The translations under genes and the position numbers were made by a program. A model generated the notes under the pieces. It worked only from the letters and a program-made list of their open reading frames with translations. It had not been told where the DNA came from and ran no database searches. 64,000 bases of DNA, taken from the NCBI GenBank assembly GCA_038087875.1, contig CM075988.1:1550001-1614000 (forward strand), read 5' to 3'. This DNA comes from Malacoraja senta. Taxonomy: Eukaryota. Below, piece after piece: positions 16,576 to 58,877 of the stretch. Position 1 is the stretch's first letter. The number at the start of each line of letters is the position of its first letter.

Positions 16576-17408
16576 TGGTAGAACCATTGTACCTCCATCT
16601 GAGGACTATCTTCAATAGGTACAAATTGAAGCCTGTGATGTTGTCCTTTGTAATAAACGCTGAGTGCCACAGTTCACGTCACTGATTTGTGTTTTTTCTG
16701 GTTGTGATTTTTGGAATCCAGTTCCCTACTTTGGCAAATGTTTCAGCAGTTTTTAGCACATATTGATCAATTACCTGCTACAAATGGTTAGAGATTGAGT
16801 TGCTTGCTCAAATAATTGGAGGTACAGGTTTGTAGGTCGGACGACATTATGTAAAATTGTGCAGGAAAATCTGTGGACTGTTGTCTTTGTTTCATGACCT
16901 GAATGTGTGATGCTGAAGCTTTTGATGTAAACTGGTCATATTGCTCTCAGCTTCTTTACTAAGGCTGGACAATGTGTTTATTCTCGTCCTGTTGTCAAAT
17001 GGTAACCAAGGTGGTGAATTTGGTGATATAGTTGTGTGGTGTTATACCTGAACAGTTTGTAAACAGTTCATTTAGTTGCGGGCTATTCCTTTATCCATGC
17101 CTCCGGCCACAGCCACTTATTCTCAGTGGGGCTGGAATGTGTCCTGAAAAGGCGACCGATGGTTTGCAAGCTGATGCTGGGATAAAGTAGCGTGAGTTTA
17201 TCCAACACTGGCATATCTTCATTAATTTGGAGAATCACCAAGCCTGCAGTAAAACCTGTTGATTCTGATAATACTATGATAATTTGGTGTTGTCAGAAGT
17301 ACCTGTCTGACATAAGATTTGATTCTAGTTACATTGTTTGTTATTGATGGCCTAACCTGGTATTGTGTTAGGATTTGGGTGCAGCGGCACAGAAATCATT
17401 AGGGGTTT

Positions 17409-17673
17409 TAGACAAAATGCTGGAGTAGTTTAGCATTTCTGGAGAAAAGATGCTACTGGCAGCATCTCTGGAGAAAAGGAATAGGTGACGTTTCGGGTCA
17501 GAACCCTTCTTCAAACCCTTTTCCGGTACTCCAGCATTTTGTGTCTATCTTCAGTATAATCCAACATCAGTCTGAAAAAGGGTCTTGACCTGAAACGTCA
17601 CCCATGCTGCCTGTCCCGCTGAGCATGTTGTCTCTATCTTTGGTTTAAACCAGCATCTGCAGTTCCTTCCTAC
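17409..17673. mobile_element. PLE-terminus hairpin mini-element with degenerate hammerhead cores
   Basis: Inverted terminus pieces; 13-bp direct repeat tcattaggggttt at 17396-17408 and 17674-17686. Confidence 0.7.
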
Positions 17674-18077
17674 TCATTAGGGGTTTAGTTTGGTCGGAAA
17701 TTGTGTTGTGGTTTGCTTTTTAATTAGATTAGTAACAATGTTTAAGAGGCAGTAATACCATTCAAGAGGCATCTGGATGGGTATTTGAATACACAAGACA
17801 TAGAGGGATATGTCATTAATGCAGGCAAATGGGATTAGTGCAAGTGGGATGGTCAGCAGAGATGTGGTGGGCTAAAGGACCTGTTTCTATGCTGAATTAC
17901 TATTAGGATTCCCCAGTTCTAACTGCAATGTTTTTTGGTGGAAGTACTATATTATTGTTGTTTCCAAGACTTTTGTATTAATGATAAGAATAATCGAGCC
18001 GTACAAAGCTGTGCCTCACTGTATTTACAGTCTCTGGTGCATGTTTTGCCTCTGGCCTGACTAACAATGACCAATGT

Positions 18078-19500
18078 GTAGGACGGAACTGCAGATGCTG
18101 GTTTAAACCGCATAGCATAAAAAGCTGGATTATCAGCGGGACAGGCAGTATCTCTGGAGAGAAGGAATGGGTGACGTTTCGGGTTGAGACCCTTCTTCTG
18201 ACTGAAAGTTACAGGAAAGGGAAACGACAGATATAGACGATGATGTAGAGAGATATAGAACAATGAATGAAAGATATGCAAAAAATTGACGATGATAAAG
18301 GAAACAGCCATTGTTAGCTGTTTGTTGGGTGAAATCTTCTGCAGTTGTATAGGGCTCTGGTGAGACCACATCTGGAGTATTGTGTACAATTTTGGTCTCC
18401 TAATTTGAGGAAGGACATGTGATTGAGGCAGTGCAGCGTAGGTTCACGAGATTGATCCCTGGGATGGCGGGACTGTCATATGTGGAAAGATTGAAAAGAC
18501 TAGGCTTGTATTCACTGGAGTTTAGAAGGACGAGGGGGGGTTTTATAGAAACATATAAAATTATAAAAGGACTGGACAAGCTAGATGCAGGAAAAATGTT
18601 CCCAATGTTGGGTGAGTCCAGAACCAGGGACCACAGTCTTAGAATAAAGGGGAGGCCATTTAAGACTGAGGTGAGAAAAAACGTTTTCACCCAGAGAGTT
18701 GTGAATTTATGGAATTCCCTGCCACAGACAGCAGTGGAGGCCAAATCATTGGATGGATTTAAGAGAGAGTTAGATAGAGCTCTAGGGGCTAGTGGAATCA
18801 AGGGATATGGGGAGAAGGCAGGCACGGGTTATTGATCGGGGACGATCAGGCATGATCACAATGAATGACGGTGCTGGCTTGAAGGGCCGAATGGCCTCCT
18901 GCACCTATTTTCTATGTTTCTATGAGAAGCTAGTGCGACTTGGGTGGGGGAGAGATGGAGATAGAGGGAATGCCGAGGTTACTTGAAGTTAGAGAAATCA
19001 AAACTCATACCACTGGGCTGTAAGCTGCCCAAGCAAACTATGAGGTGCTGTTCCTCCAATTAGCGTTTGCCCTTATTCTGACAATGGAGGAGACCTAGGA
19101 CAGAAAGGTCAGTGTGGGAATGGAAAGGAGAATTAAAGTGTTTGGCAACCAGGAGATCAGGTAGGTCCGGGCAGACTGAGTGAAGGTGTTCAGTGAAACA
19201 ATCGCCCAGTCTATATTTGGTCTCGCCGATGTATACGAGTCCACATGTTGAACAATAGATACAGTAGATGAAGTTGGAGGAGGTGCAAGTGAACCTCTGC
19301 CTAACCTGAAAGGACTGTCGGGGTCCCTGGATCGAGTCGAGGGAGGAAGTATAGGGACAGGTGTTGCAGGGAAAGGGGTGGTTTGGGTGAGAAGGGATGA
19401 GTTAACTAGGGAGTTGCGGAGGGAACGATCTCGGCGGAAGGCGGAAAGGGGTGGAGATGGGAAGTTGTGACTGGTGGTGGAATCCCATTGGAGGTGGTGA
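18078..19500 (-). mobile_element. PLE 3' fragment (GIY-YIG region plus terminus), split by a CR1 insertion
   Basis: Homologous in reverse to 25480-26100; hammerhead-like core at about 18172-18201. Confidence 0.75.
18335..18924 (+). mobile_element. CR1 (HER1-like) LINE 3' fragment
   Basis: ORF 18419-18835 (VQRRFTRLIPG...FTQRVVNLWNSLP); ttctatg repeat tail. Confidence 0.9.
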
Positions 19501-19954
19501 AATAATAATGACCAATGTTCTGCTTGTGTAATCTGTACTGATGGTGGGAAAACATCTTGAAATATTGTTTGTGAAAGTAACTGGTTGTGTGATGTTGAGC
19601 TACAAAAAAAATAAAAATAGGAATGTTTCGCTGATGATGTAGTCTTGGTCAATCATTTGATGTGTAGTAATTCAACAACATAAATAAAAATAAAAACAGA
19701 AAATGCAGGAAATAGTGCAGGGTCAGGTAGTTTCAGTGGTCGGGGAAGCAATTAACTTTTTGTATAACGCAATCTTATGAAAAACGACAAAAACTGTTTA
19801 TACTCTGTTTCTCTGTCCACAGGTTCTGCCTGACCTGAGTTTTTCCAGCATTTTCTGATTATATCGCAAGGTTTCCAGCATCTATAGTTTTTTGTTTTAA
19901 GTAACGGCTTGGAATTCTGTAGGATTTTAATGAGTGCTAGTGGGTGATAATGTA

Positions 19955-20283: not shown

Positions 20284-20347
20284 TATGAACCATTTTAAAG
20301 CTGGATGTATGTGTATAACAATCCCCTTTCTCTTTTTTTCTCTTTAG

Positions 20348-20695
20348 AATGCTGCTCTACATCATCTCTTTATACGTAAAACTTTTCGACCATTTAAATG
20401 TCTGCACTGTGGGAAGGCATTTCGGGAGAAAGAGAAGTTGGATCAGCACCTGCACTTCCATGGGCGGGAGGGCAACTATCCACTGACCTGTGATATCTGT
20501 AACAAAGGCTTCATAAACAGTTCGGCTCTCGATTCACACATGAAATTCCACTCTGATCAGAAAACGTACTCCTGTATTTTCTGCACAGAATCTTTTGATA
20601 GACTGGATCTCCTCAAAGAACATGTCGCAGTTCATGTTACTAACGGCTGTTTCACCTGTCCCTCCTGTAAAAAACAATTTCCAGATTTCATCCAG
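20348..20695 (+). CDS. PRDM10: PRDM10 zinc-finger exon (116 codons)
   Basis: tctttag|AAT...CAG|gtgagt; [42 protein letters not shown]...[10 protein letters not shown], a C2H2 array matching PRDM10. Confidence 0.95.
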
Positions 20696-23600
20696 GTGAG
20701 TGTTTCTGTCTCGGACATTTTGAAAGTCAAAGTAGTTTACCATGACTTTGATGCCTGCACTTAACAAATCTTTGGGCTTTCAGAGTTTGCTGGTGGTTCT
20801 ATTGTGTGTTCTTTCCCAGATCAATCCAAACTAATTCCACATCCTTGCGTTTTCTCTCGTAAATCAACATCTTCTAATATGTTAAGCAAGTCTATTTTCC
20901 TTAAAATACTGAATGGACTTTGTCCCAACCATTTTCTTTGGCAAAAACCTCCCATAAACAAAATATGCAAGGAATTCCTTTCTGTGCTGCATTTGCAGAA
21001 AAAAGTATGAAATTGTGAGATAATATACACTGTCTCGGGAAGAAAATGAAAGATAGTAAAAGCACACACATCAAAATTAGAGAAGGTAAAACTGAATGAA
21101 AATGACAAGCAAGGAAAAAGTAAAATAAAGAAGTTGGCGGAAAGGCAATGACGATGGTGTGTGATGAACCAGGTCAAAAGCCACTTGTTCATCACATTTG
21201 TTCACCCTGAACACCCACAGATCCAGCCCACATTCCAGGCTTATCTTGAGGTTTAGAAAACAGTTATAATCTGCAGCACAGATGGGCAGCATTTGGCTCA
21301 TCAGAATCTGCCAGCTTCTATTATAACAATCTTGTCAATCCTATTTCACGTTTTCTCCATAACTTATTCAAGCCAGTCAAATTCTCTCCTGAAGACAATG
21401 AATGATTATTTTTCCATTACCCTTGTAGGCAGTGAGTGGCAAATACTCACAATGCCCTGAGACAAAATGATTTCCCTTAACATCACTCTGTTCAAAAATG
21501 TGAATCTGTCTCCTTGATTCTATTTACCTTGCCTAAAGCAAACATAATCTTTCAAATAACCTTCCACCTTTCCCTGAGAAATCTGCTTTGTACAGGTTCA
21601 ACATCATGCTTTTGTACTTTAGGCTTGTGTTGATGAACCCTGACAATCCATACGTTTTACAAATGATTTTCTTGATGCAAGATCGCTTTGTGCTCCACAT
21701 CCGTCATTGAGTCTTTATTGTCTGTTTTCATTCTTTCTGCCGAAGTATCTCAAAGTATATCAAATTTTGATAAAATTTGGTTTGCAGAGTTTTGTAGAAA
21801 GATTAAATAATATGTATGAATCTTTTACCTCATTGGGGGGACAGGAAGGAGGTAAAATACCTTTAGATGAAAGACTGATATGGAGTGGTCACGAGTGTTT
21901 AATTGTCACATGTACTGATTACAGAACAGTAAAATTGCAGTAACATAACAAGCATGTAAAGACAATACTCAGAGATAATGTATAATAAACAAAAAATCCA
22001 ATTAATTAATAGCATCAATACTAGTGCAAAAATGCCTTCAGTCCTTAGTGCAACCAAAGACCATTCATAATTTGGTTTTCGTATGAATTTAGGAGCAAAA
22101 ATTGTCGTCACAGTTTCAATTTCAAGTTCTCTCATCATCCCAATATTCTGCTGTAGAGAAAATGTAACTCATAAATGCTGGACTGAAGTGTCATGGACAG
22201 ACGGTTCCGCGCTCCTTTTCCAAGAAGTACCTTGTACATTGGGTGTCCAGACGTTAACAATCTTAAAATACTGGGGGGAAAATACCATCATCATTTGTAG
22301 AGAGAAACAAATTGCAACTCAGCCAGTCAGTGCTTAACATAAACTCTCTCCCTCCACAGATCCTATATCACCTGCTGAGTCCTTATGGTATTTTCTCTCT
22401 TTATTTTGATGGGTTGATGTCCAGTCCTTGGGTCCGATATAAGGTGTTTTTGACAATCGTGTTTTCTATTCAAGCTTCCCTCCAGGATTATTCGGTGCGG
22501 TAGGAAGAAGGGAGCAGGCAGAAGAATTTCTGTGAGCAGCCAAGGTTGAGATTTATAGTTAGATGCTTTAGTAAGGACAAGTAAAGCGATGTTGTTGCTG
22601 CTCCCTGCATTTTGCATCATCACATGAAGATTGTCCATGGTGTTTCCAGATGTCAGAATCCACAGTGTGATGTGGGGCGTAGTTCTTTGATCACTGAGAG
22701 GAGGTGGATTGAGGAGAATCCTGGCTTTGATTTCCCCTAACTGATAGCAGGGCAAGGCTCTTGAGAGATATCTTCTTGAAATTTATTGCATTTCTTTGTT
22801 TTCTGAGGTCCCAAGATGTCCTCTTCCAAAAAAAAGTGTAAGATAAGACTGAATTTGTGACCAAACTTCCTGTCAAGTTTTGGAACTTTACCATCTGCTC
22901 CGACGACCTTGTTGATTCTTGGTTTATGGCCTTTTCAACTTATTGTCGGTGTGGGGTGGGGGTGGCGAGCCTGGACTGCTTTGAAAAGGAGTCATGGTTG
23001 ATAATCTATGATCTTAACCAAACACTGAAGAGACCCAGTCTCAGTGCAGACACAAGGATACATTTCTCGCCTCACCACATTTCTTCGTCTTGCCGTATTG
23101 GTGTACCTCACTCACCTTTGGAGCTCATTTACACCACATGTGTGGAAACTTTTAAATCAGAATTATCTCCATTGTAGAATCAAGGACACTCCAGTCTTTG
23201 GGACTGTTGCAGTATACAGATGAAGCTTGTGTATGGAGCAATGTGGAAGTCATTCTACATTTATTCTCGGTAGCATACAAGAGAATAATTCACACTTTCA
23301 GAGCAAGGGTCCTCTACCAACTACCTTCTGTACAACACCACACTCCATTTAAAGTGCACAATGAGACTCTGGAAAATGTGGGTCACCATGCCATTAAGGT
23401 TGTCAATATAAAATTGACCATTGCTTATCTGAGAAATGAGTCTTTGAGAGCAAGATATAACTTGGATGAATGGGCAGCAGTAATTCCCAGCCCTTCCGTA
23501 CACTTCAGAAACGTGTAATATGAACAGCATTCGCTAGCACTGGTGAGTGTCAGGAGTTGTGGAGCGAAGGCAGGAGAATGGGATTTAGAGGGAAAGATAG

Positions 23601-24570: not shown

Positions 24571-24761
24571 CAGTGAGCAACCTCTAACTTCCCACACTCC
24601 CCATCCTTTCAAGCACCACTGGCCATGTCTACAAAGCCTACAGCTCCCACATGGGCCTCTTCGGTCACTCAGAGCCCACAGAACTGGACCCGATGGAATG
24701 CTGAAGCAGAATAGTTGGATGTGCCAGGTTTGGGTTGAAAAGAAGTTTAATACGGTTATTT

Positions 24762-26100
24762 AAGAAAGAACTGCAGATGCTGGAAAAATCGAAGGAAGAC
24801 AAAAATGCTGGAGGAACTCAGCGGGTGAGGCAGCATCTATGGAGCGAAGGAAATAGGACCAGCTGGTCCTTACCCTAAACAACTTTCCCTTTGACTCCTT
24901 CCCCTTCCTCCAAATCCAAGGCGTAGCAATGGGCACGCGCATGGGCCAGGTGAATGCCTGCCTCTTTGTAGGGTACGGGTCGAAAAATCTTGCTTCCTCC
25001 TGCACCCATGCAGAACTCACTGACTTAATCCATTTCACCACTAACTTCCATCCAGCACTCAAATTCACCTGGACCATTTTCGACATCTCCCTACAATTTC
25101 TAGACTGTATCGCAGGTAACAGACTACTGACCGACATCTACTACAAACCCACTGACTCCCAGGGTTATCTGGACTGCACTTCTTCCCACCCTGCTTCCTG
25201 TAAGGACTCTATCCCCTACTCCCAATTCCTCCGTCTACGCCGCATCTGCACCCAGGATGAGGTGTTCCAGACCAGGGCATCAGAGATGTCCTCATTCTTT
25301 AGGGAGCGGGGGTTCCCCTCTTCTATTATAGATGAGGCTCTCACCAGGTTCTCCTCTATATCCCGCAGCTCCACTCTCACTCGCCATCCCCCTACTTGTA
25401 ACAAGGACAGAGTCCCCCTTGTCCTCACCTTCCACCCTACCAGCCGTCGCATACAACATATAATCCTCTGACATTTTTGACATCTTCAACGGGATCCCAC
25501 CACTGGCCACCTCTTCCCATCTCCCCCCATTTCTGCTTTCTGCAGAGACCATCCCCTCCGTAACTCCCTGGTAAATTCATCCCTTCCCACCCAAACCACC
25601 CTCTCTCTCAGTACTTTCCCTTGCAACCGCAGGAAATGCTACACTTGTCGCTTTACCTCCCCCCCTCGATTCCATCCAAGGACCCAAGCAGTCTTTCCAG
25701 GTGAGGCAGAGGTTCACCTGCACCTGCTCAGTTCGCAATAACCAACCTGATCTCCCGGTGGCTCAGCACTTCAACTCCCCCTCCTATTCCGAATCCGACC
25801 TTTCTGTCCTGGGCTTCCTCCATGGCCAGAGTGAGGCCCACCGCAAATTGGAGGAACAGCACCTCATATTTCGCTTGGGTAGTTTACATCCCAGCGGCAT
25901 GAAGATTGACTTCTCCAATTTCAGGTAGTCCTTGCTTTCTCCTTCGTTCCCCTTCCCTTCCCAGCTCTCCCACAAGCCTACTGTCTCCGCCACTTCCTTT
26001 CTTCTTTCCGCCCCCCAACTGACATCAGTCTGAAGAAGGGTCTCGACCCGAAACGCTTCATAGACTCACCCGCTGAGTTTCTCCAGCATTTTTGTCCACC
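24762..26100 (+). mobile_element. Penelope-like element, 5'-truncated, with inverted terminal copy at its 5' end
   Basis: RT remnant QIQGVAMGTRMG and DIYYKPTDSQGYL; GIY-YIG C-terminal remnant (PVAQHFNS...EQHLIFRLGSLHPSGM); inverted terminus at 24762-24857. Confidence 0.85.
26030..26056 (+). ncRNA. Hammerhead ribozyme-like core at the PLE 3' terminus (cleavage site mutated)
   Basis: CTGAAGA-a-gggt(ctcg)accc-GAAAC-gc; other copies read GAAAC-GTC or GAAAC-GTT here. Confidence 0.6.
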
Positions 26101-27049
26101 GTAAGACAGTTATTTGTCAGTCTTGTGGGTTGCTATGAATGAGAAGGGCTGGTTTGCCATTTTGTAGTCCACTGTATCTGTAGAGTGGATGGATGAGCAG
26201 TACGTACACCGAGGTCAGGATCCTGCTTGTGGACAGAACAATCTACGGATGGGTTTACTAGTACGGATGGGTTTACAGATGGGTATATCATGCTGAAGGA
26301 ATGTTTTGTGCTTTGAAGAATGTGGCGGTAAGAAATCATTCAAGTCATTTGGTTTGGTTGCACGAGTGGGAGATTCATTTAAGTTTGAGGTGACTGGTTA
26401 CTCTGCCGGGTGCCGAGTTGTTGTAAAGTGCAGGTGATGGGTGGAGTTGATAGAAGATGATCTAATATCGTGCAAGAAGGACCCAGTTGTTCAGGTAGAA
26501 GCAGAGATGAAAGCAGACAAGGAACTAGAAAGGGCTCAACTAAAATTGGTCATCAAAGCCATCAGTGTGATGGATGGAAAATTCAGAAGAAAGCGTTGAA
26601 TCACAAAGTATGATGCTGCTTTGATTTGACAACTTCATATCTAGTCTGTGTGACGACAAAGTACAATTTTAAGCCTTCATGATGAAGAACTTGAATGCAT
26701 CCAGATATAGCAATAGGCACATTAATAACTGCATATAATAAGCGAGTTAATAATATGAAATGAAATACAGTAAAACCTTGATATAATGCAGTATTTGGAT
26801 AACTTTAACTTTCACGTTGCAAAATAAGCTATCGCTTAATTAGTTTCTTTTCGAAGACCCTCCACTCCAATACCACCACGTGGCTTCATTTCCCAATGCC
26901 CTTAAACCCACCTTACCAATGCACCTTAAAATCATGGGATGACTAGATTTCCTCAACATCCACCCTTATTCCCTACATTCAGTTTCCGTTGCTGTATCCC
27001 ACTGCCATAGTTTGTAGAACAGATTGCCAGCGCTGCATCACCAATTCTT

Positions 27050-27632: not shown

Positions 27633-28186
27633 TCTTGGGTCAGTGGTGCTGAACTCAGGCAATTGATCTTGCAACTCCACCACTGCCCCACATTGTTCAT
27701 GTATACATTTGAATCTTAGAAAGCATATGATACGCAGGTGGCCACCGCCTAACCTCCATGTCTGTTGTAATAGAGAAAATGTAGAAACAAGGTAGTGTAG
27801 ATTCTGGTTGATACCAAAGATAGACACAACGTGCTGAAGTAACTCCGTGGACCAGGCAGCATCTCTGCAGAATAAGGATGAGTGACGTTTGAAGTTTGGA
27901 CTCTTCTTCAGAGCTGCCCAAGTTAACTCCATCTCCCACACATGATCCGTGGTCCTGCAGATCATAGCTCTTCAACAACACATGCAAACGTTCCCATTAA
28001 TTTTCCTTCTATTGATCTTGCTACATTAAGATCCAAGATCATACACGCCAGTTCCACGGATTCTATGTACTGTGCACTTTCCCTCCCTTTGGTATATTCC
28101 CTGGTCTTGTTGGACTTCGCCAAATGCACAACCTCGCGGTTCATGTGTTAAATGCCATTTGCCAACTTCCTGCTCAGTTACACAGA

Positions 28187-28734: not shown

Positions 28735-30005
28735 TGCACTGGAGAAGGGCCCCGACCCAAATAACCGCCTATCTATGTTCTCCTGGGATGCTGCCTGACC
28801 TACTGAGGTACTTCAGCACTTTGTGTCTTTTTAAGTGATGTGGACACAGGTGAGGGAGGTTTGATTGGCAGATGGGTGGACAAAGGCCAGAGAAGGGAAG
28901 AAGAAGACCAACGGCTGAAATACGGAGGTAAGGACACAAGAAGCGCAAAATGTGGTCAGTGGAAGGAGAGAGGTTTGTGGTTGGTTAGTTCCTTACAATA
29001 GGAGAATTCAATGTTTCATACCATTGGGTTGTCAGCTGCCCAAGCAGAGAGGTGCTGCTCCTCCTGAGAGCGTGTGGCCTCACTGGAAGTGGAGGAGGCT
29101 CAGGACAGAGGTCAGTGTGGGAATGGGAAGGGGCATTAAAATGGTTAGCGGCCGGAGGATCCAATCCAATCCAAGTGCAAAACAGTTACCTCGTCTACGC
29201 TTGGTCTCGCTGATGTACAGGAGGCCACATTGGAAACATTGGCTGCAGTAGATGAGGTTAGAGGAGGTACACATGAACCTCTGTCTCACCTGGTAGGGCT
29301 GCTGGGCTCCCTGGATGGAGGCGAGGGGGGGGGAGGTATAGGGACAGGTGTTACATCTCTGATTTCAAAGGTAAATACTTGGGGAAGGAATTGCTTTGAT
29401 GGGGAGGGATGTGTGAACCAAGGAGTTGCAGTGGGAGCACTCTTCTGAAGGTGGAAAGGGATGGGAAGATGTGACCAGTGGTGGGATTGCGTTGCAGGTG
29501 ACCAAAAATAGAGAATTATGTGTTGGATGCAGAGTCTGGTGGTGGGGAAAAGGTAAGCACCAGGGGAACTTGATCCATGTTCCATCTGGGGCAAGGGGGA
29601 ACGAGAACAGAACTGTTGGACACAGGAGACGCAGGTGAGCACCTCATTATCCGCTTGGATGGATGGCTCGCAAGCAACCACAACCTTTCCCTGACCCCAT
29701 CCCATTTCACCTATATCACTCCTTCTGATTTCGCATTTCTGTCCATATCTCTTTATCTCACAGCCTTTTGTCTTTTTATCTCTGGCCTTTGTCCATCCAT
29801 CTGCCAAACTAACCTTTCACTTGCCAGGCTTTGTCACGTCCCACCTCTCTTCCAATTTTCACCCCCCCACGCTGATCAGTCTGAAGTAGAGTCCCAACCC
29901 AATATGTCCCACATCCATGTTATCCAAAGATGCTGCCTGACCCGCTGAGTAACTCCAGCACTTTGTTCCTTTTTTGTAAACCAGCATCTTCAGTTCCTTG
30001 TGTCT
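28735..30005 (-). mobile_element. Decayed PLE fragments
   Basis: GIY-YIG remnant RQRFMCTSSNLIYCSQCFQCGLLYISETKRR; terminus pieces at both ends. Confidence 0.65.
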
Positions 30006-32656: not shown

Positions 32657-32664
32657 CCTGCAAA

Positions 32665-33045
32665 TCAACAAATCCAAACGATCATATAATGGATGTTGTT
32701 CCCCTGTACAGGGTGCAGCAATAAATTACTCTTTTTTGGGACTTTCATCAACATTTGTGTTGTTAATTCTAATATCAACGGATACCATGGCTGGGTAGGC
32801 CAATCTGGTACTACCAATACCCTTGAAGCAGCATCTTGCCTGACTTTAAGCAAACATTGGCTTATGAGGCAGAAAGGTGTAAATATATATGAAAACATAC
32901 CACCCCAATGTAGCGAGAAAGCATCAATCGCCACTGCTCCTGGATCTGGTTTCCATGAGACATATCTCGATAGCTGATGATTCAAGTCGATGTCGGTCAT
33001 TCCAAATCTGATTACTATATCATTGAATACCTCTTGATTCAACAT
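32665..33045 (-). pseudogene. DIRS Dam-like methyltransferase domain
   Basis: DIDL...DAFSLHW...YIFTPF...VVPDWPTQPWY; known MT domain after RNase H in DIRS1 elements. Confidence 0.75.
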
Positions 33046-33058
33046 CCATTCTTTATTA

Positions 33059-42905: not shown

Positions 42906-44459
42906 ATTTAGTGCTACATAGTCTAGTCACACACAGCACTGCTTTAGGTCCACAGACATTTAAACCTAGTTTTGAAAGGTTTTAAAAACAAAGAACACTC
43001 AACTGTGCTCTTTCTTTCATTCAGTTGAATCCCTGAGCCCACATCTCTGCTCAGGACAAAGATGGTGTGAGAATCATTTCATGTGGGTCAAAAAAATCCA
43101 AGGAGTGTGGCGTGGGCCTCTGATGATGCTGGCTGCCTTTTAGAGGCAGCGACTCCTGTAAATCCCTTCAATGGTGGGGAGGTCAGAACGTGATGAACTG
43201 GGTAGTGTTCACCACTTTTTGCAGTCTTCATTCCTGGGAGTTCGAGTTGCCAAACCAGGCCGTGATGCAAGCAGTCAATGTGCTCTCTACCATTCAGGAG
43301 AGTATTCGGTGACATTCTGGTTATCCTCAATAGCGAGGTCTCCGAAAGCAATAATACAGATAGGGTACTGAAGACTGCCTTTATTGATCAGATCAATGAG
43401 TACAGGGGTTGGGACATCATGTTACAACTGTTCTGATCACCCAGTTCATGAGGATGTTACCGGCATTGGAGGGTTTGAGCTAAAAATAGTGACTGGGTAG
43501 TAAAATTCAGACAGGTAACATGTAAAGGGAATTCAGACAGGTACATGGATAGAAAAGGTAGCACAGTGTAACAGCTGATAGAGATGCTGCATGTAGCACT
43601 ACAGACCCAGGTGCTGTCTGCGTGGAGTTTGCATGTTCTCCCTGTAATTGCGTGGGTTTCCTTTGGGTGCTACAATTTCCTCCCATAATCCCAAAGACAT
43701 TGATCTTTGCAGGTTAATTGTAAATTGCCTTCAGTGTGTAGGGAGTGGATGCGAAAGTGGGATAACATAGAACCAGTGTATGGGTGATCGATAGTTGGCG
43801 TGGACTCAGATTCCATGCTGCATCTCTAAACTAAAACTACAAGGTTTCAAGTGAAGGTAGACACAAAATGCCGGAGTAACTCAGCAGGACAGACACCATC
43901 TCTGGAGAGAAGGAATGGGTGACGTTTTGGGTTGAGACCCTTCTTCAGACTGGTATATCAAGGTTTACTGTGATGTGGGCCAAATTCAGGTAGATGGGAC
44001 CAGCGCAGGTAGACATCTTGGTTATATGGACGGGCTTGTTTCTGTGCTGTATGTCTCTGTGGCCCTATATGGAATGAATGCAGGCATGTGGGATTAATAT
44101 AGTGGGCAGGACATACACTGTGAAAGGCAGGACTGAGGATGGTTATTTAACTGAAAGATCTAGGGTTACAGGTACATTGTTCCCTGAAGGTGACAACATA
44201 GACAGGGTGATTAACCTACCAACCCGCACGTCATTGGGTTGTCAGGGAAACCTGCACAATCACAGGGAGGACGTGCAAACTCCACACATACAGCGCCTGG
44301 GGTCAGGATTGAACCTGGCTCGTTGGAGCTGCGAGACAGCAACTGTGAGCTGCTCCACTGTACCCCACCCATGTCCCTTCTGGGGTGGGGTAGAGTGGGA
44401 GAGATCAGTTATGAGGGAGGAGTGTTATCCAGAGTAGAAACATGAGCATTGCTCAGTCA

Positions 44460-47290: not shown

Positions 47291-47323
47291 GTAGACACCG
47301 AGTGAAACTGGATATGAATTATA

Positions 47324-48904
47324 CAGTGCCCTCCATAATATTTGGGACAAAGACCCATCATTTATTTATTTGTCTCTGTACTCCACAATTTGAGATTGTA
47401 ACAGAAAAAAAATCACATGTAGTTAAAGTGCACATTGTCAGATTTTAATAAAGGCCATATTTTATTTTCACCATGTGGAAATTACAGCAGTGTTTATATA
47501 TCATCCCCCCATTTCGGGGAACCATAATGTTTGGGACACAGCAATGTCATGTAAATGAAAGTAGTCATGTTTAGTATTTTGTTACATATCCTTTGCATGC
47601 AATGACTGCTTAAAGTCTGTGATTCTCTGCCAGGCCTGTATTGCAGCCATCTTTAGCTTATGCTTGTTTTCGGGGCTAGTCCCCCTCACATTTCTCTTCA
47701 GCATATAAAAGGCATGCTCAATTGAGTTCAGATCGGGTGATTGACTTGGCCACTCAAGAATTGACCATTTTTTAGCTTTGAAAAACTCCTTTGTTGCTTT
47801 AACAGTATGTTTGGGATCATTGTCGTGCTGTAGAATGAACTGCCGGCCAATGAGTTTTGAGAAATTTGTTTGAACTTGAGCAGATAGGATGTGTCTATGC
47901 ACATCAGAATTCAATATGCTACTACCATCAGCAGTTGTATCATCAATGAGGATGTGAGCCAGTACCTTCAGCAGGCATACATGCCCAGGCCATAACACCC
48001 ACACCACCGTGTTTCACAGATGAGGTGGTATGCTTTGGATCTTGGGCAGTTCCTTCTCTCCTCCATACTTTACTCTTGCCATCAATCTGATTGATATAAG
48101 TTAATCTTCGTCTCGTCTGTCCACAAGACCTTTTTCCAGAACTGTGGTTGCTCTTTTAAGTACTTCTTGGCAAACTGTGACCTGGCCATCCTATTTTTGC
48201 GGCTAACCAGTAGTTTGCATATTGCAGTGTTCCTCTGTATTTCTGTTCATGAAGTCTTCTGCGGACAGTGGTCATTGACAAATCCACACCTGACTCCTGA
48301 AGAGTGTTTCTGATCTGTCGGACAGGTGTCTGGGGATTTTTCTTTATTATAGAGAGAATTCTTGTGCTTTAGCTGTGGAGGTCTTCCTTGGCCTGCCAGT
48401 CCTTTTGCGATTAGTAAGCTCACCAGTGCTCTCTTTCTTCTTAATGATGTTCCAAACAGTTGATTTTGGTAAGCCTAAGATTTGGCTGATGTCTCCAACA
48501 GTTTTATTCGTGTTTCTCAGTCTCATAATGGCTTCTTTGACTTTCATTATCACAACTTTGGTCCTCATGTTGATAAACAGCAATAAAAGTTTCTAAAGTG
48601 ATGGAAAGACTGGAGGAAAGACTAGGTGCTGAGATCTCTCTTATACCTGCATTAAGGAGTATTTAATCACACCTGAGCAAATGGGAAGCCATGTGTCCCA
48701 AACATTCTGGTGCCCTGAAATGGGGGGACTATGTATAAACACAGCAGTATTTTCTACATGGTGAAACCAAAATGTATAAAAATACCCTTTAATAGACTCT
48801 GACAGTGCACTTTAACCACATGTGATTTACAAATGGCAAATTGTGGAGTACAGAGGCAAATAAAGAAATGATTTTTTTTGTCCCAAACATTATGGAGGGC
48901 ACTG
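47324..48904 (-). mobile_element. Tc1 transposon, IR/DR type, defective
   Basis: About 215-bp TIRs starting cagtgccctccataat; left TA; transposase remnants LGLPKSTVWNII-GRPRKT and QHDNDPKH...WPSQSPDLNSIE. Confidence 0.92.
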
Positions 48905-49625
48905 TGGATACAGAGGATAACCAGTCAACAGTGATGGTTAAAAATATAAATTAATCCCAGGAAATGTATGCAATTATTACAAAATAATCAGATATGGTTA
49001 CAGTTGCAGGTTAGTTATATTACATTCCAACGGTCTGCATGAATGAGTTCAAACCCCACAATTAATTAAATTTTGTTTAATGAAATTAATCTGGAATTAA
49101 AAGTTAGTAAAAGAAACTGGTTCGAAAAGGTAAATGCTTATCAAATCCCTGAGAGAAGTAATGTCGTGCTGTCCTATGCTGGGCTGTTTGAGATTTGTTT
49201 TGTGGTTGACTCTCTTCTCTCATGTCCCTCCACGCACCAAGCAACCATGTAAAACACTGATGGTGCCACACGGTGTCAATGAAGGCAGTGTATTTGATTT
49301 GGAAGTGTAGCCTGACATTGTCATTATCACAAAATCATATCGTCCAATTGATACTCCCTCCAGTCTCCTCCATCCGAGTGTGTCCTGTTACAGAAATACC
49401 GCTGCATAGCACAGAAACGGGCCCTTCGGCCCATCATATTCACACCATTCATTTTGCCCAACAACATTGCGGCACAGAAGCAGCTGTTAGAGCTACAGCC
49501 TCACAGTGCCAGAGACCTGGGTTAGATCTTGAGATGTACCGTTTGAACATTCTCCCTGTGGTCATATGAGTTTCCTCCCACGTCCTAAATATTATTTTGC
49601 CATCTTAGAATTACATTTTTTTGGA

Positions 49626-49810
49626 AAGAACTGCAAATGCTGGTTTAAATCAAAGGTAGACACAAAATGCTGGAGTAACTCCGCGGAACAGGCAGCATCT
49701 CTGGAGAGAAGGAATGGGTAACATTTTGGGTCGAGTCTATCCTTCTCCATTCCTTCTATCCAGAGATGCTGCCTGTCCCGCTGAGTTACTCCAGCCGTTT
49801 GTATCTACCT
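49626..49810. mobile_element. PLE-terminus hairpin mini-element
   Basis: Inverted arms, long (tailed) arm on the left; degenerate flanking repeat tagaat...cattttt. Confidence 0.7.
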
Positions 49811-51025
49811 TAGAATGAGCATTTTTGAAACGTGGTAGGAGAAATATGATGACAGAATGGAGGGGATGGATCACACGGACATGTGAATTAGGAGCAGGAC
49901 AGGCTCACTTAGCTCTCAAATCTGCTCCACTATTTAACGTGCTCATGGCTGAACAGTGAATAACCTTTCACTCCTTCCCTTCACTCCTTCACTATCTCCA
50001 CATAAACATATTCAACGACTGTTCCCATTGCCCTTTGAGGAAGATTCCTGAACCTCTGGGAGAAAATATTTCACCTCATCTGTTTTAAATGGGCAACTCT
50101 TTTGTTTTAACCAGTGACCACTGGATCTAGATTCTCCACAAGAGGAAACATCCTCTCCACATCCTTACTGTCTACAACCCTTAAGCTCATTTCAATCAAA
50201 TCCTCTGATGTTGTAATCTCCATCAGATATATACCCAGATTCTCCAATCAGAGAGCCAGGTTCGATCCTGACTACGGGTGCTATATGTACGGAGTTTGTA
50301 CGTTCTCCTCGTGACATGCATGGGTTTTCTCCCACAACTTTGTTTTCCTCCCACACTCCAAAGACGTGCAGGTCTGTAGGTTAGTTGGCTTGGTATAAAT
50401 GTTTAAATTGTCCCTAGTGTAGATTACTGGTCGCTGCGGACTCGGTGGGCTGAAGGCCTGTTTCCGTGCTGTATCTCTAAAATAAAATAAAGACCACCTG
50501 CCCATTTCAGTTGTTGGTGTAGATTTGCATCCAATACATTTACATTCTTCCTTAAATAGTCCAAAACTTGTGCATATGTTCCTGATCTAGCCTCATCAAT
50601 GCCCTAAATAAATGAAGCAGAAGTTCCATAATTTTGTAATCCATCCCCTCTCAAACAGCAATGACATTCTTTTATCCTTTTGAATCACTATATGCATACT
50701 TGGGGTCTGTGCATACTGACTTTGTGACTCCATTGACATTTGGACATGTTTTACAAAGTGTAGATGTGGAAACAGTTGGTGCAATAAAGGGATGGTGGCA
50801 CAAAGTGTGAATGTGTTGCGGTAGGTGTGTGCGGTATAAGATGTATAACTGAGTGGGTGACAGGACAGTGTAAGTGGAGTACAGCAGGTGAGTATGGAGG
50901 GGGTCGCTGTGGATGGAATTTGAGGTTGTGAGTGTGAAAGGTGCAGATAGCAGTGGTTGGACGGGGAGAGAAAGCCTTGGTGCTTTACTTATTGTGTCCT
51001 GTTCTGTCTTTGCATCAATGAACAG

Positions 51026-51181
51026 ATAAAGAAGCACATTCGCAGCTTCCACTCTGAGAAGATTTACCAGTGTACAGAATGTGACAAAGCCTTCTGCCGG
51101 CCGGACAAGTTGCGACTACATATGCTGCGACACTCGGATCGGAAAGACTTCCTATGCTCCACCTGTGGCAAGCAGTTCAAA
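51026..51181 (+). CDS. PRDM10: PRDM10 zinc-finger exon (52 codons)
   Basis: aacag|ATA...AAA|gtaagt; [52 protein letters not shown]; completes the finger begun in the previous exon. Confidence 0.95.
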
Positions 51182-52250
51182 GTAAGTGGTTGCCCAGTGC
51201 TGAAGTCAGCTGCTCCTGTTGTAATGGTGCATCTCCGTAGTTGTGTATGTGTTAGTGAGATTACTTACTGTCATCTTATTATTATCTGTGGGCTGTTCAC
51301 GTAGTTTGACACACCATAATTGTTGACAGAAAGGTTTTACTTGCCACTTAACAGAGAACTGAGGGAGGGGTGGGAGAGAAGGGGCAAAGGAAGAGCTGGA
51401 CATGAGCATGAGTGGTATGTGCACTGTATGTAGGTGTCAGATTGTCTTGGACCTTCTTGGATCAAGACCTTGCTCTGCCCAGACTCTGTGATACAGCCAC
51501 ATCTTTGCAAAGATTTCTGTACTTCAAAATCAGGTTCAACATAGGATAGGACAAGTTTAGAGGGATATGGACCAAGCCCAGGCAGGTGGGACTAGTTGAG
51601 CTGGGACATGTTGGTCGGTTGGGCCGAAGGGCCTGTTTCCACACGGTATCACTCTATGACTTTATGACTCTCTTACATCTGGAAAATTAAGATATCTAGA
51701 TGGCACCAGTAATGACAGAAAAATAATGCTCTGCCATCGTAGCCTGACAATTTGGATGCATTGACATCAACACTGCACTTTGAATGTGGTCATGCTGGGC
51801 AGGAGGTGTTGGGTATGTTACCTGGAATGGCAAACTGGAACATCATCCTCACGGGTTTAATGTCGTCAGGAATGTGCTCGCCTGGATCTCAGCCACTATC
51901 CTTGGGGATGAATATATCAGGGCTCGAAATTAGCAGTTGCCCGGGTGCCATTGACCACCCAAAGTGTCGCCGAGCAACCTAAACGGCGACTCATTTTGCC
52001 CGGCTTGGCATGCAGATACTGGTTTATACCGATAGACACAAAAAACTGGAGTAACCCCGCGGGTCAGGCAGCATCTCTGGCGAATAGGAACATGACGTTT
52101 CGCGTTGGTGGCGGCTGTATTGCGGGGCAAAGATACTAGGTGCGTGGTGACGAAGGGTCAGAGCGAATGACGGGCTCCGAACAGCGGCAGCAGCGGCCGC
52201 GAGAGCGGCTCCACCGCCTCCTCCTCCCGTACCCCGCCCGGCGGAAGGAG

Positions 52251-52419
52251 CCCTCCCTCCTCCCGGCCTCGGCGTGTGAGAGGGGTTGTTTTGAAAGCAC
52301 CGTTGGCGGATTGGCAAGCAGCGGCCACTATTGCCCTGATAACGGCCGCTGCTTGCCAATCCGCCAACGGCGCTTTCAAAACAACCCCTCTCGCAGGCCG
52401 AGGCCGGGAGGAGGGAGGG
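52251..52419. repeat. GC-rich near-perfect palindrome
   Basis: 76-bp arms 52251-52326 and 52344-52419, 17-nt loop. Confidence 0.9.
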
Positions 52420-52683
52420 AGGGGGGGAGAGGGAGGCCTCCTTCTGCCGTCTAAAGCAGCTGCACCAAAGGTCCTATAGCTATAGGATCTTTGAGCTGCA
52501 CCGCTCGGCCCCGCACCTTCCTGTCGGCTGGCGGAGGAGGGGAGGCGGCAGCGAGGAGTTCCCAACCGACACCCCTTTGGCGGCGGCACTTTGGCGTTGG
52601 ACAGGGACGGCCAAGGCAGCGGGTCGTTGTTGTCCGAAGAGCGCTGACCTTCCTTTCTCCCCACCTCCTCTGCCCCTTCCCCC

Positions 52684-52730
<47 letters not shown>

Positions 52731-52929
52731 ACGCCCCCCTCCACCCCTCTTATCCTGGGACCCCTCCTTTCCATCCCGCACTGATCCCCATTCCCTCCTC
52801 TATTCAGTCCTCACTGACATCCCCTGTGCTCCCCTCCCCATCTACCACCCCCCCCCCCAATCTATTCATCACCCTACCCTCCTCGCATTGATTCTCCTGC
52901 CCCCCTCCCGCCCCATCCATCCTACACTG

Positions 52930-53293
52930 GTCCCCCAATTCATCCTGTACTGACCCCCCTTCCCATCCATCCTGCACTTCTCCCCCCATTCATACTGCAC
53001 TGATCCTCCCATTCATCCCGTACTGACCCACCCTCCATTTACCCTGCACCAATCCCCCCCATCCATCCTGTAGTGATCTTCCCATTCATCTTTTACTGAT
53101 CCCCCATTCATCCTGTACTGATCCCCTCATTCATCCCGTACTGATCCCCCATTCATCCTATACTGATCCCCTCATTCGTCCTGTAGTGATCCCCCAATCA
53201 TCCTGCACAGACCCTCCGATCCACACTGTCCAGACCCCCCCCCCCCCCCCCCAATTCATCCTGTACGGATCCCCCTCATTCATCCTGTGCTGA
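52930..53293 (+). repeat. About 22-bp minisatellite (cccattcatcctgtactgatcc)
   Basis: More than 10 degenerate tandem units are visible. Confidence 0.85.
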
Positions 53294-53951
53294 TGGGTTT
53301 CGGCCTGAAACGTTGCCTATTTCCTTCACTCCATAGATGCGGCTGCAAAACCAAAAAGCTCCAAAAACTGTTCCAGTGCAATCTGCTCATCTCCAGATAC
53401 AAACAGAACATGTAAAAACACTCAGCAGGTCAAGCAGCATCTGTGGAACGAGCGCTTTATTATTCCGCCAAGTTCGGTGCCGCAATAGATATCTATTTCT
53501 CTTCCTTCATAATGCCAAAGCTTACAAAAGCTTCAAAATCTCTTGGATTCCAATCTATAAGACATACGAGCACAATTAGACCATTTGACCCATTGAATCT
53601 GCCCTGCCACTCCAGATCTTTCTTCAACTGTCCTTTCTTCTAACCTTGTCCCCTTCCTGCCCCTAACCTCCTCCCCGCAGTGTTTTCACCATCCCGCTCG
53701 TCTTCCTGTCAATGAGTCGGAATAATCATTCCTTAGCAGAGGGTTTTTTCTTCCTCCTTTGTCTTCGTATTACATTGAGTCTGACATGATGATCTAGTCT
53801 TTGCTGCCTCTGCCTCCATGCCTATTGCTTTGGTCAAAGGTGTTAACACAAGCCTGTGAACTGGGACCCCTCCTACCCCCTGGGCCCATACGTTCTGCAA
53901 TCGCTTCATTGTAACTGAAGTGGCATGTGAGGTTAACTTGATTTTTCCACA

Positions 53952-53954
<3 letters not shown>

Positions 53955-54015
<61 letters not shown>

Positions 54016-54069
54016 TCTCCCTCTCCCTCTCCCTCTCCCTCTCCCTCTCCCTCTCTCTCTCTCTCTCTC
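53955..54069 (+). repeat. (CT)n / (CTCCCT)n microsatellite
   Basis: Read directly from the sequence. Confidence 0.95.
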
Positions 54070-57062
54070 CACTTTACTGTCCTCTCACCTTGCAGCACAG
54101 CACCTCGTCAGATCCAAATTCGTCAACGTCAACTAGTTTGGCATTTGATCTCTGATCACAAAACCAAAACAACACGGACACACCCTCATCCCTTCCTCTG
54201 GACCGTGACTCCACCAACTACGAGTACCAAGTAACGGGTCCTGTGTGAGACAAGATGTAGTTGCTGTCAGCTACTACAAATCAGCAGATATATTGAAAGC
54301 ACTCTTTGCTAATCTGCATTAAGTTATCAAGTTGACCAAATTCCTGATTTTGATCAACCTGTCCTTTTAAACTGCACTCTGTGTGAGCAAAGCTAGCTGA
54401 ACCTTTCCTCACGAAAGCTTGGACATAAATATTGAATCTCAGCATCTTGTGCATCTTGTAGATGATGCGCACTGCAGTCGTGGTGCATAAATGGTGAAGG
54501 GAACAAACATTAGGGATGATGTTTGGACACCAGTCAAGCTACTTTTTCCTGCATGGTATCAAGCTTCTTGATTGTTTCTAGAGCTGCACTGATCCAGGCA
54601 AGTGGGGAGCATTTCATCACACGCCTGCCTTGTGATTTGTAGATGCAAATGCTGGTCACAGTATTTATGTGACTATTCGCTTGACCTCCTGGTCACATGT
54701 GACCTCTACTCCAATATGTCAATCATGGAAGCCTCAGCAACAGTAAATGTCATTGAATGTCAACGATAGAGATTTATATTCTTTCTTGTTGGAGATGGTT
54801 ATTCCTTGGCACTTGTATGATGCACGTTACTGGCCATTTACCAGTCCCTGCCTGAATGTTGTCGAGGTCATGCATTGAGCAGCCACGGACAGCATCATTT
54901 TCAGTGGAATTGAACGTTGTGAGGTCATCGGCAAATAACCATCTTCTGATCTAATGAAGGAAGGGAGAACATTGATGACGATAGTTGGTCCAAGGGCACT
55001 TGTCTGAGAAGCTCTTGCAGTGCTGTCATGGGGCTGAGCTCCTAACAAATGCATCCATCTTCCTTTGTACAAAGTATGACTTCAAATAGTGGAGTTTTCC
55101 CTTGATTCCTATTGAAATCAATGTGACCAAAATTCCCTGATGTTAACATGAGTTACTCATCACACCTTCATCCAGGTTTGGACCAGGATTGTGATGATGC
55201 CTGGAGTTGAGTAGTCTTTGTAAAAAAGCAGGTCGAACATGAATGAAGAATTCACAGAGTGCTTCCTGGTGGCACAGTTGATGACAGCATTCATTACTTT
55301 GATAATGATCAGGGGATAATATCATCTAATATTGCATTTGGCATTGGTTTATTATAGAGGTGCAGTGAAAAGCCTTTGTTTGCGCGCTTTCTAATCAAAT
55401 CTGATGAAAGAAGGGTCTCGACATGAAACGTCACCCATTCCTTCTCTCCAGAGATGCTGCCTGTCCCGCTGAGTTACTCCAGCATTTGTGTCTACCTGAT
55501 GATACTATTCATGAATACAATCAACCCCTTATACAAGTACAACAGATAGATTGAAGAGAAAAATATCAGAGTGCAGAATATTTTTTTTCCAGCATTGTAT
55601 GACTTACAGAACTCTGTTTCAGAGCAAAAGTCCAGTATCTGCAATGAGGTAGGTTGGAAGATCAGGACTATACCTAGCTCACTGAAAGACTGCTCAGACG
55701 TCTGATCATAGAGGAACGAAGCTGTTTCTGAGTCTGATGGTATGTGCAATTTCTGATGCGGTCAGTAGTTAGCTGTTGGATTTGACTTGCCTTTTGTGAA
55801 GAGACTATTTCTGGATAGATTTCCACATTGGCAGTTTAACGTCAATATTGTACTGGCACTGAAGTATCTTGTGTAGATATCTTGTGAAGTATCTTGTACA
55901 GCCACTTCTGGGGCATCTTCATTACAGTCGCCTGTTGTCTGGTCCCACAACCATGCCTTCTACTGTGCTATCAGCTATTTCTTAATATCTAACAGAATGG
56001 ATTATCTTGGCTGCAGACTGACATCTATGATGTGGTGACCCCAGGAGAAAGCTTAGTGGGATTATCCATTCATGCTGAAAATGGTGACCTATATCTGGGC
56101 CATTTCTTTAGAGTTTACTAGATACAGCACAGAAATAGGCCCTTCAGCCCACCGAGCCTACTCCGACCAGTGATTCTCGTACACTAAGTACAAATTACAA
56201 TTTACAGAAGCCAAGTAACCTACAAACCTGCATGTCTTTGGAATGTGGGAGGAAACCAGAACGCCCGGAGAAAACCCAAGCGATCACAGGGAGCACCCGT
56301 GTTCAGGATCGAACCAGGATCGGGTGCTGTAAGGCATCAATTGTACTGCTGCGCCACTATGCCGCTCCCTTGGCACGGGTGCTGGGCTGCATTGTCACAG
56401 GGCTGGGGAATGTCACTGGACCCTCCCCCATCTCACAGTTGTTTAGTTGAACGGCTTTTATGACTGGACATGGCAGGACGTCAGGTTTGAGGTGATCCAT
56501 TGGCTGTAGGATTGATTTGTTCTGCGTTATAGTATTCCGCTTTTCCTAATTACCACAGTAATCATGTGCTGCAAATTCAGTTAGGGATCGCATGTACTCC
56601 TGGTGCTGCTGCTAGAATGCGTTTCTGCACTTCTCGCTGAACCCACATTGATCCTTGGCTTGGTTATAATGATGTGCAGGACAATGGTGAATAGAATCCT
56701 GCTGTTTAGTGACCTTTGAACCCTTTTGGATGCCCAGTGTGCAACTGCAATCCGTTCTGAATCTAATCATTTAGCCTGATGGATGTACAACACAAGACAA
56801 TGCAGCATTTCACAATCTTCATAAGAGCTATGTTCCAATCACTACTCCCATTGCTTTGGGGTGAAGATATATCTACAACAAATGGACGTTAGGATGTCAA
56901 ACCTGTTCAATCAGTTGTTAGGTCCATCACCACTTGCCACAGCCAGTCTGGCAGTTATGTTTTTCAGCTTAGTCAGTGGTATTGGTGATGGACATTCAAG
57001 ACCCAGACCTTTGCTACTTTGAGCTTCTGCCAAATCATGCTTAACACAGATTCATCAGCTTC

Positions 57063-57820
57063 ACAATTACAATCACAATCACAATAATACTTTATTAGCC
57101 AAGTATGTTTTGCAACATACGAGGAATTTCATTTGCCAAGTCAGTCATACAAATAAAAAGCAACGGAACACACAAAATACATTTTAACATAAACATCCAC
57201 CACAGTGACTCCTCCACATTTCTCACTGTGATGGAAAGCGAAAAGTTCAAATCTCTTCCCTTCTGTGTTCTTCCGTGGTCGGGGACCTCGAGCCCTCCAT
57301 TGACGGGACGATCTTGACTACCGTAGCTGGCGGTGTTTGGGCCCTCCGCATCGGGGCGATCAGCTCCTGCATCGGGTGGATGTCAGCTCCCCCTGAGTTG
57401 GCGATCGGACCCCACGTCGGGACTGGTCGAGCCTCTGGTCGTTGGAGCATCCCGACTCAGGCTCTCCCGAGACTGCGAGCTCTTGATGGTAAGTCCGCAG
57501 GCAAGGGATCAGCTCTGATGTTCAATCCACGCCACGCGGTGGAGCTCAAGGCAGTCCGAGGAGGCCTCCAGCTCCAAGATGGTAGGCAGCAGAGCGACCG
57601 GAGATACCACCCGAAAATTAATCGCATCTCCGGCAAGGTAAGAAACTGAAAAAAAGTTTCCCCTTCCCCCTCCCCCTCCCCCTCCCCCTCCCCCCACATA
57701 AAACAAATTGGAGAACATTTGTACAAACTTTTATCACACACTAAAAATTAAAAAAAGACGAAAAATAGACAGACTGTTGGCCAATCGACAGACTGCTGCC
57801 AATCGTGTGGCGCCCCTGGT
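57063..57820 (-). mobile_element. GC-rich SINE-like element, divergent copy 3
   Basis: Shares aacatcc...cacagtga...ctcactgtgatggaa and the A-rich aaaatagacagac block with copies 1 and 2; different 3' tail. Confidence 0.6.
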
Positions 57821-57999
57821 GGTAGTTTTGGGTGGTAAAACGATCGTTTGTTCTGATTGTGTTAGTCTTCCTGGTATCAATGTTAAGAACTGGTAGAGGC
57901 ACTCCTCCTTCGCTGCTTACAGCTGTCTGGGTTGGTCCCTTGTTGGATCACAACAGATCCAAGGTTTGTGATGCAGCTGAGCACATAGTAAAATATCAC

Positions 58000-58096
58000 A
58001 GGTACACAAAAATGCTGGAGAAACTCAGCGGGTGCAGCAGCATCTATGGAGCGAAGGAAATAGGTAACGTTTCGGGCCGAAACCCTTCTTCAGACT
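58000..58096 (-). mobile_element. 97-nt hammerhead-containing PLE-terminus insert
   Basis: 16-bp direct repeat catagtaaaatatcac at 57984-57999 and 58097-58112. Confidence 0.8.
58066..58093 (-). ncRNA. Minimal hammerhead ribozyme motif, core intact
   Basis: The - strand reads CTGAAGA-a-gggt(ttcg)gccc-GAAAC-GTT. Confidence 0.65.
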
Positions 58097-58877
58097 CATA
58101 GTAAAATATCACTCTGTGCCTTGGACAATATCAGGCTGTGTTTTACAATTCTTTTGGAAACTTTGCCATTTGAAACACCTGTAAAGAGGATTTTGTTGGG
58201 TCAAGTTGACAGGAATGTTTTGTCATCTCCAAATCGATTGTTAATAAAACCATTGTTGTCTAACCAGTTGTATTCAAATTCATACAATCAGAGAGTTGCA
58301 CAACTTGGAAACAGGCCCAGTTGCCCAACTCGTCAATGCCAGCCAAAATATCTATCAGAGCTGCATTTGTGTGCATTTGGCCCATATCCCTCTAAACGTC
58401 ACAGGCCGGAATGGGCGAAATGTGACTTCATGCGGGCTGGATCAGTTGTGCACGCGCGAACGCACGCTCCCACAGCTTTCGTCGCCTTCGTTTTTTTCAA
58501 CCTGCTCTCATGTGTCTCAGTCTCTGTTCCAACTACAAAGTGTTTCACTTTACGAATTTTGTTTCGTATGAAGAAGATTGCCGAGCCAGCATTACTTTTA
58601 TGATTGGTATTAACTTACAGTCTTAGGCTACAAGAAAGTTATGATGAGAGAGAGAAAAAACAGGCTATTTTGGCTAAGATTGTTTCGGGAGCGACACCCT
58701 TTCCATTTTAATAAACCATTTGAAATCGAACAATAGCAGACACAAATGTAAACCTAACGAAACAAATTGTAAATGTAGGCTACTCAACAGCACCTCATTT
58801 TTATTTGCCTGCTTCCAGCAATCAAACTCAGACAATGAACACAGTTAGCCTCTAATTTTTATTGAAGTGATCACAGT

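Follow-up and report, generated by a model that had tools for sequence, protein, structure and literature searches.

The 64-kb window analysed here, one stretch (positions 1,550,001 to 1,614,000 of contig CM075988.1) of the 1.94-Gb genome of the skate Malacoraja senta, lies entirely within the gene PRDM10, which is encoded on the + strand. A host exon at 7189..7371 (+) and two zinc-finger exons at 20348..20698 (+) and 51023..51181 (+) were located, the next exon lying past the window end at ~72.8 kb, and a PRDM10 exon shares 99% identity with PRDM10 of Mobula, Hemitrygon, and Hypanus. An earlier note had described a family of hammerhead-ribozyme-bearing mini-elements, derived from the terminus of Penelope-like elements (PLEs), in these introns. 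Our results make it very probable that these repeats are pseudo-long terminal repeat (pLTR) stubs, fold-backs, and 5'-truncated copies of an abundant Neptune-type PLE, likely with two internal reverse transcriptase (RT) start sites, whose hammerhead is a passenger that is likely inactive in host introns.

All eight hammerhead motifs listed in the earlier note were found where, and on the strands on which, it had placed them, and all are intronic in PRDM10. As had been proposed, the motif is the minimal type I hammerhead of the PLE terminus, with a palindromic ACGU replacing helix III; CUGANGA, the extra base before helix II, G10.1-C11.1, GAAA, the palindromic positions 15.2-16.2, and an NUH triplet are present, as are the two stem-II types. 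An Rfam scan of the window returned no hammerhead family at E ≤ 10. The core at 58066-58093 (-), with the triplet GUU, is the single intact one among the eight, and each of the three other antisense cores carries a substitution at a conserved site (C3U at 17514, U4A in 18173-18200, and G12A in 43921-43948). The suggestion that intact cores are confined to the antisense strand while sense copies are mutated does not hold: one of four antisense and none of four sense cores is intact (Fisher p = 1), which is uninformative.

The exact 28-mer occurs in 18,728 copies in the genome (9,309 + 9,419) and a degenerate intact core in 46,080 (23,252 + 22,828); since the reversed controls gave 0, chance is excluded for the motif. 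A copy profile built only from the 70 nt following the cut site gave 27 matches in the window, compared with the eight sites first reported. The same profile was applied to a strand-oriented sample of 1.494 Mb, consisting of PRDM10 and 140 stretches of 10 kb bounded by fn3, spectrin, and CUB exons that lie on the same strand, where the assignment of a stretch to a single gene rests on exon clustering. It detected 569 copies at ≥15 bits in this sample and 0 in the reversed sequence. If the sample is typical, the family would amount to ~700,000 copies genome-wide.

The intact core belongs to a 97-bp pLTR stub (58000-58096, -; whole insertion 57984..58112) that begins with AGT and is flanked on both sides by 16-bp target-site duplications (57984/58097). 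The direct repeats that had been noticed around inserts were confirmed here and, with 13 bp (17396/17674), around a fold-back unit at 17396..17686, which consists of a minus stub (17409-17516, C3U) and a plus stub (~17566-17673, G8A, with tail). A further pair of 16 bp (4150/4353), beyond the range covered before, flanks a second fold-back unit (4150..4368) without a complete core, whose joint lies near the ACGT palindrome, and a third fold-back unit at 49625..49813 lacks a full core and has 8-bp direct repeats nearby. Additional pLTR stubs are located at 43855..43953 (-; core 43921-43948) and, decayed but with tail, at 27790..27915 (-). The CTGATGA at 55401, previously taken for a variant of the core, is one of two 7-bp direct repeats (55401/55496), likely a target-site duplication rather than a core, that adjoin a 5'-truncated stub with a broken stem II (55401..55502, +).

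Other copies retain parts of an open reading frame (ORF). A 5'-truncated PLE at 24761..26103 (+) comprises an inverted pLTR piece (24761-24857, -), an RT and GIY-YIG remnant (24878-25922) with 62-71% identity to the 620-aa ORF of copy L062, a 3' untranslated region (UTR), and the core at 26030-26056, in which U16.1 is changed and a deletion follows. At 18060..19502 (-), the 3' part of a PLE contains a linker and endonuclease (EN) remnant (18985-19502), the 3' UTR, the core at 18173-18200, and the tail; it is split by a fragment of a long interspersed element (LINE) at ~18334-18927, and the UTR halves are contiguous in copies L146, L206, and L217. The cores at 26030 and 18173 are the 3' ends of the ORF remnants 24878-25922 (+) and 18985-19502 (-), respectively. 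An older PLE subfamily (43-45% identity) is represented at 29014..30000 by an ORF remnant (29014-29641, -) and a head-to-head pLTR with a decayed core (29640-30000, +). The three PLE ORF fragments of the window were identified by tblastn, and Pfam missed all three.

The parent element and the ends of its copies

An RT fragment used as a query gave 33,204 candidates in the genome, the best 150 of which were scored. In 22 of 30 fetched RT loci, one being the window itself, a core lies 400-900 bp downstream of RT in sense orientation. The longest ORF pieces (586-659 aa) combine RT, a C-x4-C-x2-C linker (copies L061-L063), and a CCHH GIY-YIG domain, and full-length relatives of ~900 aa carry RVT_1 and GIY-YIG. 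This combination therefore points to the Neptune or Nematis type, since a CX2-5CxxC linker is described as common to these two and absent from Poseidon (PMC8557442). The pLTR unit also lies upstream in sense in 13 of 20 loci chosen by the ORF N-terminus. In four copies measured, it continues through the tail to a predicted ATG 161-164 nt past the core, and the peptide from that ATG resembles the start of P0136. One 5'-complete copy, L293, starts at AGT. Because the unit occurs both downstream of the RT/GIY-YIG ORF and upstream of the predicted start codon, the supposed mini-element is the pLTR itself.

The predicted start codon lies within CAAGGTATG, after a pyrimidine-rich stretch (L292, L293, L299, and L308), and could be a splice site, comparable to the 5' intron of Penelope. 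A member of an unrelated young repeat family (L260-L289), with 97-100% identity and an (ATT)n end, interrupts L071, which is the longest PLE copy.

The 220 core-bearing copies with ≤4 mismatches comprise 83 stubs, 67 long copies, 62 inverted copies, and 8 tandem copies, and diagnostic changes are common to stubs and long copies. A head-to-head partner is present in 251 of the 569 copies. Partial tandems, inverted partners, a 30-40-bp tail, and variable target-site duplications are all seen in copies of the element, and flanking repeats of at least 11 nt were found at 12 of 83 stubs and at 0 of 83 controls. The 3' ends fall into two modes ~35 nt apart, with called boundaries that overshoot by several nt. 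At the 5' end of the stubs, agreement with the element is lost over the ~3 nt that precede CUGA (T 80%, G 70%, A 63%, then 40%). AGT or GT just before CUGA thus forms a sharp 5' end, which is also the top 5' loose end in three sequencing runs. At the position where stubs start, long copies read TCAGT, which we take to be an initiator-like word.

Internal promoters and initiator-like words have been described for pLTRs (PMC2377424; PMC3846280), and the PLE tail has been tied to two internal RT start sites (PMC11167929). In the mechanism that we propose, transcription would start at the TCAGT of the pLTR, and RT would initiate at two positions inside the pLTR, at ~95 and ~130 nt. Synthesis begun at the site closest to the 5' end of the RNA would run off at AGT and yield the 95- or 130-bp stubs, and synthesis begun in the 3' pLTR would yield long copies with variable truncation. 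We infer that the sharp AGT end reflects such run-off of RT, so that AGT is likely the RNA start. Any cleavage would need a dimer or the element's protein, within its own ribonucleoprotein. The copy ends provide a natural read-out of a PLE mechanism previously shown in vitro for one Poseidon element.

Two other causes of the 5' peak were considered. A 3' splice site (pyrimidine tract and CAG before the core, as in D. virilis) was rejected because stubs mostly keep AG or G and have no upstream exon in common. Ends cut by the ribozyme were also rejected, as the cut site shows no peak (21 of 525 ends lie within 5 nt of it, with boundaries overshooting by several nt).

A composite element of ~1.3-2.9 kb, with the ends CAGGGCTC...GAGCCCTG and apparent 5-bp duplications, carries two pLTR stubs (L145, L234, L240, and the window). 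It is presumably hAT-like. Its left part lies at 51918..53345 (+), with DNA-transposon-like ends, passenger stubs at 52011-52107 (-) and 53292-53345 (+), and a 23-bp minisatellite. Since the composite carries two stubs and one exact junction of it has 724 copies in the genome, some hammerhead stubs have likely spread as DNA-transposon passengers. Seven loci on small contigs (L253-L259) have in common a composite that joins the 3' piece of a pLTR directly to a stub beginning at AGT.

Ribozyme state and strand distribution

Covariation in stem II was not observed: one stem type has U-A where the other has U-G, a change confined to one side, and no pair is altered on both sides in more than 3 of 301 copies. 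Helix I comprises 2 bp (96, 91, 3, and 0% paired). Changes affect 14-27% of the 301 copies at CpG positions (23% at G12) and 2-16% at other positions past the first three, with no difference between strands. The cores decay like neutral DNA, driven by CpG. In most of the predicted folds, the core is occluded by the pyrimidine stretch that follows the cut site; the stem II probability is ≤0.01, and opening the core is predicted to cost 4-8 kcal/mol. Forced double hammerheads gave gaps of 26-33 kcal/mol, a calculation without positive control that is not relied on. As modelled, the hammerhead is likely inactive in host introns.

RNA data were taken from a polyA run of a relative (X24), 6% of which was read. 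A GUC stub was covered by 11,635 of 7.3 million reads, equally in both directions, and 96% of these continue into unlike flanks. In this polyA run, which has little power to reveal circles or cut ends, no pile-up of read starts or ends was detected over the unit, and no read ended at the cut site. The pattern over the unit fits passive read-through. In the same run, reads over the PLE ORF (L061:2420-3000) are strand-asymmetric by ~2:1, compared with 1:1 over the pLTR unit, the orientation of the library being unknown.

It had also been suggested that selection against cleavage of pre-mRNA shapes the strand distribution. All copies in the oriented sample are divided into 289 sense and 280 antisense, and intact cores into 39 sense and 40 antisense (odds 0.61-1.55), a balance that speaks against such selection in the 1.49 Mb sampled. 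Intact and mutated cores do not differ by strand (p = 0.80), and the subfamilies are balanced between strands. An absence of stem-II covariation and of strand bias had both been named in the earlier note as outcomes that would count against its reading, and both were observed, the latter in the 1.49-Mb sample. This lack of an overall intron strand bias in the sampled copies is compatible with an inactive or protein-dependent ribozyme.

Alternative explanations and known systems

Several observations weigh against the interpretation of the repeats as copies of a Neptune-type PLE with a passenger hammerhead. No intact full-length ORF was found among the 150 best RT matches, the longest open frame being 659 aa, and the domain features of the element fit both Neptune and Nematis, so that its assignment to Neptune is provisional. 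Three of the 67 long copies are the composite element, and the stub 5' peak could result from RT stalling instead of the RNA start. One site nominally separates stubs from long copies (12/83 vs. 0/67), short of Bonferroni correction. In post hoc comparisons, intact GUC cores number 17 in sense and 31 in antisense (p = 0.059, odds 0.28-1.02) and intact GUU cores 22 and 9, respectively (GUC/GUU by strand, p = 0.003).

These last counts raise the question whether intact GUC cores, in copies of the same PLE origin, cut host pre-mRNA often enough for selection to purge them mildly from sense orientation. The deficit of sense GUC cores is as expected from such purging, but the subset was picked after the fact, the opposite excess of GUU cores is unpredicted, and the ratios of intact to mutated C17 copies (22/89 sense vs. 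33/84 antisense) give p = 0.16. Copies also cluster within genes, and the hammerhead fold is predicted to be unstable. Purging is therefore improbable, though a mild strand effect on GUC cores may exist.

We consider it quite improbable that the 95-130-bp stubs are a self-propagating unit similar to a short interspersed element (SINE), with an internal promoter at AGT, a protein-assisted hammerhead, and an RT initiation site, mobilised in trans by PLE protein. The sharp common 5' end of the stubs, their position as the largest class, and their flanking repeats would agree with it, as would reports that Penelope has an internal promoter (PMC2377424) and that pLTRs alone can mobilise DNA in trans (PMC3846280). 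However, no stub-only lineage was found: no internal site separates stubs from long copies past Bonferroni (490 tests), and the nearest neighbour of a stub is a stub in 42 of 83 cases, with 55% expected. Moreover, the older, stub-enriched variant has a long, ORF-adjacent form in the window (29014-30000), and the relative's RNA reads over the unit continue into the flanks in both directions.

A retrozyme-like non-autonomous system, as initially inferred, is not borne out, as the copies are stubs of an ORF-bearing element and no tandem arrays were found. Non-LTR retrozymes, in which tandem hammerhead units cleave to monomers, circularise, and retropose, are defined by these tandem units (PMC7229834; 10.64898/2026.07.22.740005). 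The skate family shares with them the motif class (type I hammerhead), pLTR-related sequence, and long target-site duplications, and animal retrozymes have been argued to be pLTR-derived and to be present in one chondrichthyan (10.64898/2026.07.22.740005). Back-joints of 94-95 nt were also detected in 21-34 contigs each in two non-RNA runs; they had 0 RNA reads, although circles are poorly captured in a polyA library. In contrast to the tandem units, canonical ribozymes, and circular RNA of the retrozymes in PMC7229834, the skate copies are dispersed, inverted, or ORF-linked, and their motif is minimal, without the canonical type I form (6-bp helix I, loop contacts). A genome search for one exact head-to-tail junction gave only 9 matches, none with a second core upstream, and among 37 intact cores a single same-strand pair lies within 1 kb and consists of two ORF remnants. 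Tandem hammerhead units were thus not found with one junction type genome-wide and in the 1.49-Mb sample, and a retrozyme system is very remote.

A combined explanation is doubtful as well. In it, the stubs that begin at AGT would be full run-off cDNAs covering nucleotides 1 to 95-130 of the PLE transcript; some of them would be amplified again as a minimal SINE-like unit, and intronic GUC cores in sense orientation would be under mild negative selection. If it is true, hundreds of thousands of copies would map the RNA start and the RT starts of a Neptune element to the base. Were self-propagating stubs or a strand bias of GUC cores confirmed, they would throw light on what PLE hammerheads do.

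The minimal PLE hammerheads of PMC4209133, reported to show no cleavage as monomers and weak cleavage as dimers, have the same CUGANGAH, G-C-closed helix II, GAAAN, palindrome, and NUH; a helix I of 2 bp and the GUU triplet also occur among the motifs listed there, and the motifs are likewise mostly dispersed and single, with thousands per genome and some opposite-strand pairs. The skate family differs in a helix II of only 4 bp and is commoner (46,080 vs. ~4,000-9,000 in coelacanth and Xenopus, with differing descriptors). Shark or skate terms are absent from file 2 of that paper's supplement.

The EN-containing (EN+) PLEs Neptune and Nematis (Craig et al., 2021, PMC8557442) share with the skate element the RT with C-terminal GIY-YIG, the CX2-5CxxC linker, CCHH, partial tandems, an inverted 5'-truncated partner, and a 30-40-bp tail, whereas the skate family has no intact master among the best 150 RT matches. 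The Poseidon element PAc of Anolis (Frangieh et al., 2024, PMC11167929) also has a hammerhead at the pLTR-ORF junction, two tail-defining ends, and no RNA-seq reads ending at the cut site. Its ORF starts in stem II, whereas the predicted skate ATG lies ~160 nt after the core. Cleavage by the PAc hammerhead was demonstrated and is protein-assisted and dispensable in vitro; cleavage by the skate hammerhead is hypothetical. Nothing specific to batoid PLE hammerheads or to their strand bias was found in the literature searched, and the supplements of 10.64898/2026.07.22.740005 may list the family. A batoid family, probably of Neptune type, is thus added to the known PLE hammerheads.

Other repeats in the window

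At 94-3150 (+), an unbroken frame of 1,018 aa with APE endonuclease and RT domains represents a young-looking LINE in a PRDM10 intron. An imperfect inverted repeat of ~2.4 kb at 14080-16510 contains CT/GA tracts and 32-bp subrepeats, and its arms are at most 88-92% complementary. A broken element at 31685-35494 (-), likely of DIRS type, combines a tyrosine-recombinase fragment with RT-like frames and terminates in a 133-bp tandem duplication. A DDE_3 transposase fragment is located at 47582-48013 (-), a Spin-doc zinc-finger fragment at 59661-60026 (-), and a broken LTR-retrotransposon with protease and RT matches at 61810-63945 (+).

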